Shown one piece after another: positions 53,617 through 54,149 of a DNA stretch of 64,000 nt. The position numbers and the translations under genes were made by a program. The notes under the pieces are model-generated. The model searched no databases. It worked only from the letters and a program-made list of their open reading frames with translations, and was not told where the DNA came from. Every line of letters begins with the position of its first letter. The first letter of the stretch is position 1. The DNA comes from a virus: IMG/VR virus record IMGVR_UViG_3300044673_000097, positions 1 through 64,000 of that record; one strand, given 5' to 3'.

Positions 53617-53853
53617 CCTCCAATGCTCACGCTTCGATCCTCGATCGCGAGGTCAAGGCCTGTCGTTTCCATTTCATTCTCCTGCCCTGCAATCGATGAC
53701 GCTTCGATCCGCGATCGCGAGTCGAAGGGCGCGAACGTGCACGCCACGGCATATCCCCTGCAATCGATGGCGCAACGATCCTCGATCGTCACCGTCGTGG
53801 AGACGGTTTGCGGCGCCGCGTTTCCAGTGCCTGCACCCGTTCACGCTCCAACC
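53617..53853 (-). CRISPR. mini-CRISPR array 1 (3 full repeats + 1 truncated repeat, 3 spacers)
   Basis: 35-36 bp repeats at 53617-53651, 53686-53721 and 53757-53792 (minus CTCGCGATCGCGGATCGAAGCGTCATCGATTGCAGG); partial repeat 53830-53853; spacers 34, 35 and 37 bp. Confidence 0.88.
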
Positions 53854-54149
53854 TTTTCGCAATCGTGGATCGAAACGCAATCGTTGGCGAGGACGATGCC
53901 TCGCCTTTGCGCCTTGCAGCAGGCGCTCTCGAAAACATCCGACTGGGCATCCTCTCCCACACGCGCAAGGATGCGTTCGCATTCCGAACTGTCAACGTGC
54001 AGCGCTGTCGATTCAGCAGATTGTTCCACTTGACAATCCCCACACCCCTCAAACTCCTGCCGCTCCGGCACCCACACCCGGCCAGTGCCGCCGCATGGGC
54101 AAGGCGGCTTGTACCGGCCCAGCGCTTCGAGCTGTGCGCGGGAGGTCAT
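53841..54149 (-). CDS. small Cys-rich ORF whose 3' half overlaps tracrRNA 1
   Basis: ATGA overlap with the upstream gene; CPCGG...GCGDC. Confidence 0.4.
   Translation of the reverse strand: MTSRAQLEALGRYKPPCPCGGTGRVWVPERQEFEGCGDCQVEQSAESTALHVDSSECERILARVGEDAQSDVFESACCKAQRRGIVLANDCVSIHDCEKVGA
53857..53960 (-). ncRNA. putative tracrRNA 1
   Basis: Inverted repeat copy at about 53857-53885; upstream hairpins GCGCC-TGCTGCAA-GGCGC and GGCGAGG..CCTCGCC. Confidence 0.75.
53968..53995 (-). promoter_or_regulatory. candidate promoter for tracrRNA/array/effector
   Basis: Minus strand TTGACA-16 nt-CATCCT. Confidence 0.4.

Follow-up and report, generated by a model that had tools for sequence, protein, structure and literature searches.

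The stretch of DNA analysed here (the window) covers the initial 64 kb of a virus record of 85,379 bp in IMG/VR (IMGVR_UViG_3300044673_000097; estimated completeness 88%), and it carries a gene for a Cas12f-like protein with a damaged nuclease site, dcas12f, which is preceded by a series of CRISPR-type repeats and a putative guide-RNA scaffold. All locus coordinates below refer to the minus strand of the window. The carrier of the locus is a temperate phage, and a tyrosine-integrase match lies at 2732-3232 of the 85-kb record. The locus upstream of the gene (module 1) comprises two scaffold hairpins (S1 and S2), an anti-repeat, a truncated first repeat (R0), a first spacer (spacer 0) and three full repeats (R1 to R3), which lie together with dcas12f on one strand (Table 1). 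An earlier note, made from the sequence of this stretch, proposed that the beginning of module 1 is a natural single-guide RNA, i.e., a trans-activating CRISPR RNA (tracrRNA) already joined to a truncated repeat and its spacer. It is this first unit that is considered here.

Table 1. Positions of the features discussed, in window coordinates
Feature	Position	Strand	Basis or remark
Open frame, 102 codons	53841..54149	-	passes through the scaffold; stop inside R0
Scaffold hairpin S1	53909..53926	-	stem GCGCCT/AGGCGC, loop GCTGCA; covariation (alignments A2, A3), covariance model
Scaffold hairpin S2	53886..53905	-	stem GGCGAGG/CCTCGCC, loop CATCGT, then AA; covariation, covariance model
Anti-repeat, 26 nt	53858..53883	-	duplex energies, shuffle test; long repeat/anti-repeat strand
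AAAA linker, anti-repeat to R0	53854..53857	-	sequence
Truncated first repeat R0	53830..53853	-	without the 5' 12 nt of the full repeats
Spacer 0, candidate hard-wired guide, 37 nt	53793..53829	-	sequence
Mini-array R1, spacer 1, R2, spacer 2, R3	53615..53792	-	repeat family D1
dcas12f, 501 aa	52105..53610	-	Pfam PF07282, AsCas12f similarity; TTG start at 53610
Partner gene, 194 aa	51524..52108	-	start overlaps dcas12f stop; C-terminal leucine-zipper-like tail
Second guide module	51159..51479	-	covariance model, E 2.1e-07; after the partner gene

The anti-repeat opens with CGATTGCGTTTCGATC (53883-53868), which is separated by a gap of 14 nucleotides (nt), CACGATTGCGAAAA (53867-53854), from GGTTGGAGCGTGAACG (53853-53838), the stretch of R0 that can pair with it in cis; the 3' end of R0, GGTGCAGG (53837-53830), stands directly before the 37-nt spacer. 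The scaffold 5' of the anti-repeat is only about 45 nt long. The AAAA join is, with its 4 nt, too short for a promoter or terminator, and no terminator-like site was found between the anti-repeat and R0. The full repeats (R1, 53792-53756; R2, 53721-53685; R3, 53651-53615) measure 33-37 nt each and follow one another with a period of 70-71 nt; the start of R1 falls between 53792 and 53788, and spacer 0 is thus 37-41 nt long. Tandem Repeats Finder reported nothing in 53000-54500 because the repeats are too few and too diverged, and they were detected by the repeat-family search (D1). No Rfam family matched in 50000-57000 at E-values up to 1.

The last repeat before the gene differs from the others. 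Where these end in ...ATTGCAGGG, R3 ends in ...ATTGGAGGTG, so that its TGCAG motif is gone, and the change yields GGAGGTG, which stands 4 nt upstream of the dcas12f TTG codon. R3 is thus predicted to double as the Shine-Dalgarno sequence, i.e., the ribosome-binding site, of the gene. If the scaffold pairs with R3 (-33.7 kcal/mol), dcas12f translation could be influenced.

Scaffold, predicted pseudoknot and anti-repeat

The two scaffold hairpins are conserved as structures. In an alignment of nine modules from six loci, 93.0% of the S1 and S2 positions are paired and 8 of the 13 pairs vary on both sides, compared with 28-52% pairing in controls in which the partner strand was slid by 1-3 columns. 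In a set of ten modules (two from the window and eight from the related locus L006, the latter being paralogues within one locus and not independent), 92.9% are paired, 6/13 pairs vary on both sides, and the observed pairing and the observed covariation score were each attained in 0/500 shuffles. S1 and S2 also adjoin the homologous gene, with compensatory changes, in L006, L007, L008, L003 and L010. A covariance model trained on the nine modules detects exactly two strong copies in the 85-kb phage (53880-53930, E 1.8e-11, in module 1; 51434-51479 in the second module), both on the minus strand and each before a repeat series, and it finds a copy outside its training set, in locus L002 (E 7.6e-05). 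By these comparative measures, the scaffold is judged to be a real conserved RNA. A weak third match to the model at 48969-48996 (minus strand, 14.2 bits, E 0.5) is probably noise.

The S1 loop contains CTGCA (53919-53915), which is complementary to TGCAG at the 3' ends of the repeats; what can be stated here is pairing potential. In R0 this strand lies at 53835-53831. The 5-bp CTGCA:TGCAG pairing is possible for 6/7 window repeats across both modules, TGCAG standing 0-2 nt before the spacer, and the exception is R3, immediately before the gene, with TTGGAGGTG in this place. The loop is TTGCA in L006 and L002, where the repeats end in TGCAA (15/16 repeats in L006 and 10/10 in L002, one of the latter via G-U). 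The exchange of CTGCA:TGCAG for TTGCA:TGCAA is one compensatory switch from C-G to U-A. The pseudoknot is not discernible by eye in the distant relatives L007 and L008. The guide of AsCas12f1 cannot do without its short repeat/anti-repeat pseudoknot of 5-7 bp, whereas its long stem may be altered freely (PMC11246509), and it is to this essential short pseudoknot that the predicted window pseudoknot corresponds. The long stem of the Cas12f1 type is likewise present as pairing potential, over 26 nt in trans or 16 nt in cis.

The cis stem was described in the earlier note as 15 of 16 paired positions, many of them G-U, followed by GGTGCAGG and a 37-nt spacer, and this description holds: 53883-53868 pairs with 53853-53838 by 9 Watson-Crick and 6 G-U pairs, and the hairpin is included in the minimum-energy fold. 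The companion observation that the anti-repeat also matches the full repeats is borne out, since the same 16-mer pairs with R1, R2 and R3 at 13, 15 and 14 of 16 positions, and so is the G-U argument for the orientation: a plus-strand reading lowers the four pairings to 9, 12, 13 and 12 of 16, and, because the G-U pairings are lost on that strand, the RNA is placed on the minus strand. To call the first repeat truncated was apt, as R0 starts 4 nt after the anti-repeat and is shorter by the 12 nt at the 5' end with which the final 10 nt of the anti-repeat would otherwise pair. The proposed 14-nt loop has to be redrawn. The gap is there, but 10 nt of it belong to the anti-repeat, whose complementarity to the full repeats spans 26 nt (53883-53858); in the cis form, the loop thus consists of the last 10 nt of the anti-repeat plus AAAA. 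The possibility that the loop is the 5' part of a full degenerate repeat was considered and rejected, the repeat part being palindromic and the remainder of the anti-repeat giving a better fit.

The trans pairings are the stronger ones. The best 16-nt complement of R2 within the 200 nt upstream forms 15 pairs, 14 of them Watson-Crick, and was equalled in 0/500 dinucleotide shuffles. Over the whole 26-nt anti-repeat, the duplex energies are -29.3, -38.8 and -33.7 kcal/mol for R1, R2 and R3, respectively, and -16.6 kcal/mol for R0. R0 differs from R2 at 5/16 paired positions: three transitions keep the pair as G-U, and of the remaining two differences one creates a G-U and one breaks a pair. Over its last 19 nt, R0 agrees at 15/19 positions each with the fused repeat of L006 and with the first repeat of the second module, and at 12, 14 and 10 of 19 with its own R1, R2 and R3.

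The effector, its partner and related loci

The dcas12f product matches PF07282 (Cas12f1-like TNB) with 46.1 bits against a cut-off of 26.3 (E 5.5e-12), and its best solved relatives are AsCas12f entries, over residues 188-419 (E 4.6e-16 for 8j12 to 1.2e-14); the match to the solved nuclease-deactivated Cas12f 9n9c is much weaker (E 2.2e-05). Two NCBIfam models, guided_TnpB (76.1 bits, cut-off 100) and CRISPR_Cas12f2 (25.7 bits, cut-off 450), stay below their cut-offs. In the alignment with AsCas12f and the family, the Asp of RuvC-I is replaced by His and the Glu of RuvC-II by Pro, the RuvC-III Asp456 is kept, and both CxxC pairs of the zinc ribbon are intact. A protein database search returned 20 family members, of which 19 were aligned (alignment A1), the 312-aa fragment P0018 being left out. 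Among the relatives are P0002, P0004 and P0005, with identities of 67%, 61% and 51%, respectively. The RuvC-I Asp is present in 0/19 (5 His, 13 Asn, 1 Val), the RuvC-II Glu is retained in 12/19, and nearly all have the Asp of RuvC-III as well as the four Cys of the zinc ribbon. The whole family therefore looks like DNA binders unable to cut. Within it, nuclease loss appears to have been stepwise, and the RuvC-II Glu is additionally lost only in the five members closest to the window protein. In the zinc ribbon of the family, some 20-45 additional aa are inserted between the first and the second CxxC pair. A repressor role of the nuclease-dead Cas12f (dCas12f) is suggested by the inactive RuvC site together with the published analogues discussed below. 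Searches of IMG/VR with the window protein alone gave no close relatives, and a search with the DNA pattern of hairpin S2 gave 0 matches.

The partner protein matched no family above threshold; there were weak sub-threshold coiled-coil matches only. A partner of about 190 aa with a conserved N-terminal domain and a leucine-zipper-like tail lies directly after dcas12f in the window, in L006 (about 5455-6030) and in L002 (2213-2797), and such a gene is absent after the dcas12f homologue in L008, L010 and L003. The partner may be an effector or a dimerising partner of the dead Cas12f.

Nine related loci were compared, three of them viral, five metagenomic and one from a deltaproteobacterial genome bin; the protein match of L004 is weak (23% identity) and L005 duplicates the L006 sequence. 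In L002, with a protein of 40% identity, the repeats (about ten, of 35 nt each) come first and a separate scaffold stands after them; its anti-repeat is, by eye, a long complement of the repeat, with a strong hairpin behind it. L010 and L003 have the scaffold and anti-repeat upstream of the gene and ordinary arrays downstream. In L008 the scaffold and anti-repeat are followed, after about 40 nt, by four truncated 16-nt repeats with short spacers and then by the gene, and eleven full 36-nt repeats lie downstream of it. This locus (3593-3715 and 5442-6295) is a second case in which half repeats beside a scaffold coexist with a full array. L006, the closest relative among the loci compared (protein 64% identical), has eight scaffolds, two before the gene (3736-3990) and six after the partner gene (6039-6890), and the scaffold there is intergenic. 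Seven of the eight run, with 0, 7, 10 or 18 nt in between, into GG(G/A)TGCAAG plus a unique guide, and after the eighth there is a degenerate GGATACAAG. Additional 16-nt repeat-spacer units (CGTCAACGGGTGCAAG) are interspersed in L006, and no long anti-repeat was seen anywhere in that locus. Its genes further include one that resembles an excisionase gene (3512-3733) and one for a tyrosine integrase (7938-9311).

Judged by their sequences, the relatives show a series of guide formats that would lead from separate RNAs through half repeats beside a tracrRNA to fused, duplicated units. The window is placed in this series as a stage between L008 and L006, with R0 4 nt from the anti-repeat and full repeats after it.

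A proposed single guide and competing explanations

The reading favoured here is that the region is the guide-RNA gene of a nuclease-dead, Cas12f-like DNA binder of a temperate phage and that its first unit would be a functional single guide, to which a probability of about 0.58 may be assigned. A natural single guide is plausible because homologous relatives have fused units. R0 retains both the stretch that pairs with the anti-repeat and TGCAG, the latter having been lost by the dead terminal repeat R3. In this reading, a single transcript would carry the scaffold, R0, spacer 0, the array and dcas12f. R0 would fold back onto the first 16 nt of the anti-repeat, and its UGCAG would pair with CUGCA of the S1 loop to give the short pseudoknot typical of Cas12f1 guides. 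Spacer 0 would thereby form the 3'-terminal part of a single guide some 115-135 nt long, which would be ready-made and would not need RNase III. R1 and R2 would form trans duplexes with other scaffold copies over all 26 nt of the anti-repeat, like a tracrRNA bound to CRISPR RNA (crRNA); where these are cleaved, the single guide would also be shortened at its 3' end. R3 would serve as a dead terminal repeat that provides the ribosome-binding site of dcas12f. The loaded dCas12f would then bind DNA without cutting it and most likely block transcription of a target in the host or in a rival element, possibly acting together with the coiled-coil partner.

Two parts of the original proposal fare differently. 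The single-guide, hybrid format gains from the covarying scaffold, the anti-repeat with R0 4 nt on, the pseudoknot potential and the fused units of L006, but it loses from the stronger trans pairing and from the lack of a target for spacer 0. A start of the RNA at about 53960 has no support: the conserved RNA begins at about 53930, where the covariance-model match (53880-53930) starts, and no sigma-70-type site was found in 51000-54400.

Several results weigh against the single-guide reading. The fold energy of the 168-nt segment is unremarkable (z = -1.75; 11/200 shuffles as good), and that of the 61-nt hairpin even more so (z = -0.79; 40/200 shuffles as good). As the trans duplexes are far stronger than the cis hairpin, the cis form may be transient or displaced. 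The hairpin is known from one genome only and has no covariation of its own, and its absence in L006 indicates that it is dispensable in relatives. That three R0 transitions would keep their pairs by chance is estimated at roughly 4-12%, which makes them weak support, and the likeness of R0 to the fused repeats (15/19) is barely above its likeness to R2 (14/19). No sigma-70-type promoter was found on the minus strand of 51000-54400, the scaffold is crossed by a 102-codon open frame, and none of the four sequencing runs that contain the locus is an RNA run (4/4 are DNA metagenomes). Spacer 0 had no match in the 85-kb phage, among INPHARED phages or, as an exact 20-mer, in IMG/VR.

Within the favoured reading, a more elaborate version is worth stating, although it is rather doubtful. 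The locus might be a two-mode guide system in mid-transition, in which one transcript gives both a fixed single guide with spacer 0, independent of host RNase III, and a tracrRNA for the exchangeable spacers 1-2; the weak cis stem, rich in G-U, and the strong 26-bp trans duplex would compete for one anti-repeat and in this way set the ratio of the fixed guide to the array guides. If so, the window would, together with L002, L008 and L006, point to a collapse from dual to single guides that took place independently in a phage dCas12f lineage whose RuvC was inactivated by another route than the published one.

The most serious competitor of the single guide is an ordinary tracrRNA beside a four-repeat array, in which R0 is a decayed, partly deleted end repeat and the cis pairing an unavoidable by-product; such a scaffold would work solely by trans pairing to R1 and R2, once RNase III has cleaved, and spacer 0 would be unused or an ordinary spacer. 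The far stronger pairing of the full repeats with the whole 26-nt anti-repeat fits such an arrangement, as do the clearly separate tracrRNAs and arrays of L002, L003 and L010 and the unremarkable energy of the hairpin. End repeats of arrays are, moreover, often degenerate, and R3 is so here. However, decay would not readily explain why R0 keeps exactly the two parts that a guide requires, when the dead R3 lacks TGCAG, or why 4/5 of the changes in R0 keep or create pairing. The 4-nt spacing also leaves the scaffold and R0 joined in any transcript, and fused or truncated repeats beside the scaffold recur in L006 and L008. On balance, this explanation is less likely than the single guide.

A regulatory role of the cis hairpin is considerably less probable. 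The hairpin could mask 16 nt of the anti-repeat, and so set the amount of scaffold available for pairing with the array, or it could control read-through into the array and dcas12f, and for such a device it would be suitable that the cis and trans pairings are mutually exclusive and of unequal strength and that the array and the dcas12f Shine-Dalgarno sequence are physically coupled. Nonetheless, no terminator-like feature was found after the hairpin, L006 keeps its fused guides though the hairpin is lost there, and the sequence results give no sign of regulation.

Least probable by far is that the features belong to the coding frame 54149-53841 and that there is no functional RNA here: this frame is indeed open through the scaffold to its stop in R0, and its ATG overlaps the stop of the upstream gene (ATGA) and is preceded by a GGTGGGAG motif, but its third-position G+C drops from 0.80-0.85 in the first 30 codons to 0.45-0.50 beyond (dcas12f, 0.81), its product matched nothing in Pfam or PHROG, and the scaffold, which in L006 lies between genes, covaries as RNA with G-U pairs. 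The frame is translationally coupled to the upstream gene, begins like a zinc ribbon (CPCGGTG...CGDC) and crosses the presumed promoter, and its coding signal weakens beyond about 30-40 codons. There may be a real short protein of the zinc-ribbon kind, and the tail of the frame is probably read-through into the RNA gene.

Known counterparts and the surroundings of the locus

The premise from which the earlier note started, that Cas12f uses split guides only, is out of date, as single guides of dead Cas12f (PMC13472631) and a scenario for the fusion of a half repeat with the tracrRNA (PMC10691335) are already known. A literature search to which figures and supplements were out of reach found no paper on the present protein family or on a phage dCas12f with a half-fused guide. 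The closest counterparts are the dead Cas12f proteins associated with sigma-E, which use chimeric single guides (Hoffmann, Wiegand et al., Nature 2026, PMC13472631); their authors propose that these guides, which resemble CRISPR repeats, collapsed from dual crRNA/tracrRNA. Both systems have a nuclease-dead relative of Cas12f and, in the case of L006, several guide units per locus; a scaffold and a 3' guide in one RNA would be shared as well, as the 4-nt genomic join and the fused L006 units suggest, but an anti-repeat suited to trans pairing is retained here. However, the published proteins are truncated at the C-terminus and have lost part of RuvC, whereas the window protein keeps the RuvC-III Asp and the zinc ribbon. 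Their operon includes an extracytoplasmic function (ECF) sigma factor gene (rpoE) whose product has a C-terminal extension, whereas in the window a coiled-coil protein occupies the downstream position and Sigma70_r2 has no match anywhere in the 85-kb record. The window locus further differs in being phage-borne and in keeping the anti-repeat and full-length repeats beside the fused unit. The same study reports a dCas12f cluster that lacks rpoE and lies next to CRISPR arrays, where a non-coding RNA with covariation immediately precedes the array (Extended Data Fig. 1a,b) and repression of a target promoter is suggested; its example is a Chitinophagaceae genome and not a phage, and the comparison with the window is one of descriptions only.

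In the scenario of Altae-Tran et al. (PNAS 2023, PMC10691335), an array shrinks to a half repeat beside the tracrRNA, the two are then fused into a re-emerged omega-RNA, and this is duplicated into arrays. L006 resembles the fused and duplicated stage, and L002, L003 and L010 the starting stage. The scenario concerns, however, an RpoE-linked lineage without RuvC-III, whereas the window family has Asn or His in RuvC-I and no RpoE, and the half repeat of the window shares its array with full repeats.

AsCas12f1 (type V-F1; PDB 8j12, Jiao et al. 2024, PMC11246509) is alike in its long stem, its pseudoknot of 5-7 bp and the position of the guide 3' of the repeat. It is, however, an active nuclease with separate natural RNAs, and its single guide is man-made; in the window the join is genomic, about 45 nt of scaffold precede the anti-repeat, and RuvC is inactivated. 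Cas9, too, has natural single guides. The tracr-L RNA (Workman et al., bioRxiv 10.1101/2020.05.21.102756) is a genome-encoded fusion of tracrRNA and repeat-spacer that supports binding without cleavage, and phages carry natural single guides of Cas9, the vsgRNAs (Feussner et al. 2026, bioRxiv 10.64898/2026.06.01.729453). Both belong to type II, with an unrelated fold, and hijack or regulate the host Cas9, whereas the window phage encodes its own effector. TnpB omega-RNA and TldR guides (PMC10705468) are alike in that a single RNA holds the scaffold and a 3' guide, and dead, phage-encoded repressors of this kind are known. In contrast to TnpB, module 1 lies 5' of dcas12f and the second module after the partner gene, and there are CRISPR-type repeats and an anti-repeat. 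The omega-RNA overlaps the 3' end of tnpB and the right end of the transposon in elements of the IS200/IS605 type. Transposon features were not noticed at the window locus, where transposon ends and TnpA were not searched for.

What is particular to the window is that a half repeat joined to the tracrRNA and full repeats that match a 26-nt anti-repeat stand in one short array. The setting is also particular, in that the family is borne by a phage, lost its nuclease activity by another route and is accompanied by a conserved coiled-coil partner but by no sigma factor. Switching between one-piece and two-piece guides has so far mostly been inferred from trees; this family offers all stages in living sequences, with the window as the middle stage, and the proposed fusion step thus becomes directly testable. 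The tiny scaffold, together with relatives that lack the long stem, may be of interest for shrinking Cas12f guides. To the examples from nature, the window would add a temperate phage that encodes its own non-cutting, RNA-guided DNA binder.

The second guide module is built in the same manner, with a scaffold (51479-51434), a 105-nt linker with an anti-repeat, a first repeat (51331-51296) and two more repeats. Of the adaptation genes, cas1 was looked for (PF01867) in the 85-kb record, estimated to be 88% complete, and gave no match; no search aimed at cas2 or cas4 was made. The six window spacers gave only short matches at chance level in the 85-kb phage, as did the guides of L006 against L006, the phage and the other loci. 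The region 53615-53960 had no match among INPHARED phages, and spacer 1 had no exact 20-mer match in IMG/VR. Spacer 2 (53652-53684) is unusually rich in A+T for the phage and resembles a ribosome-binding site plus ATG. A 20-mer of it matches one low-GC IMG/VR contig, L013 (11193-11214), where the first 22 nt of the spacer are identical across a ribosome-binding site and start codon. This sole spacer match is probably due to chance, because the composition and the likely host do not fit.

The window stretch was found in four sequencing runs, all of them DNA metagenomes from the rhizosphere. Contigs from these runs aligned to the stretch as fragments only and held no informative variants; one of the metagenome contigs spans 53737-53911 and has zero differences to the window.

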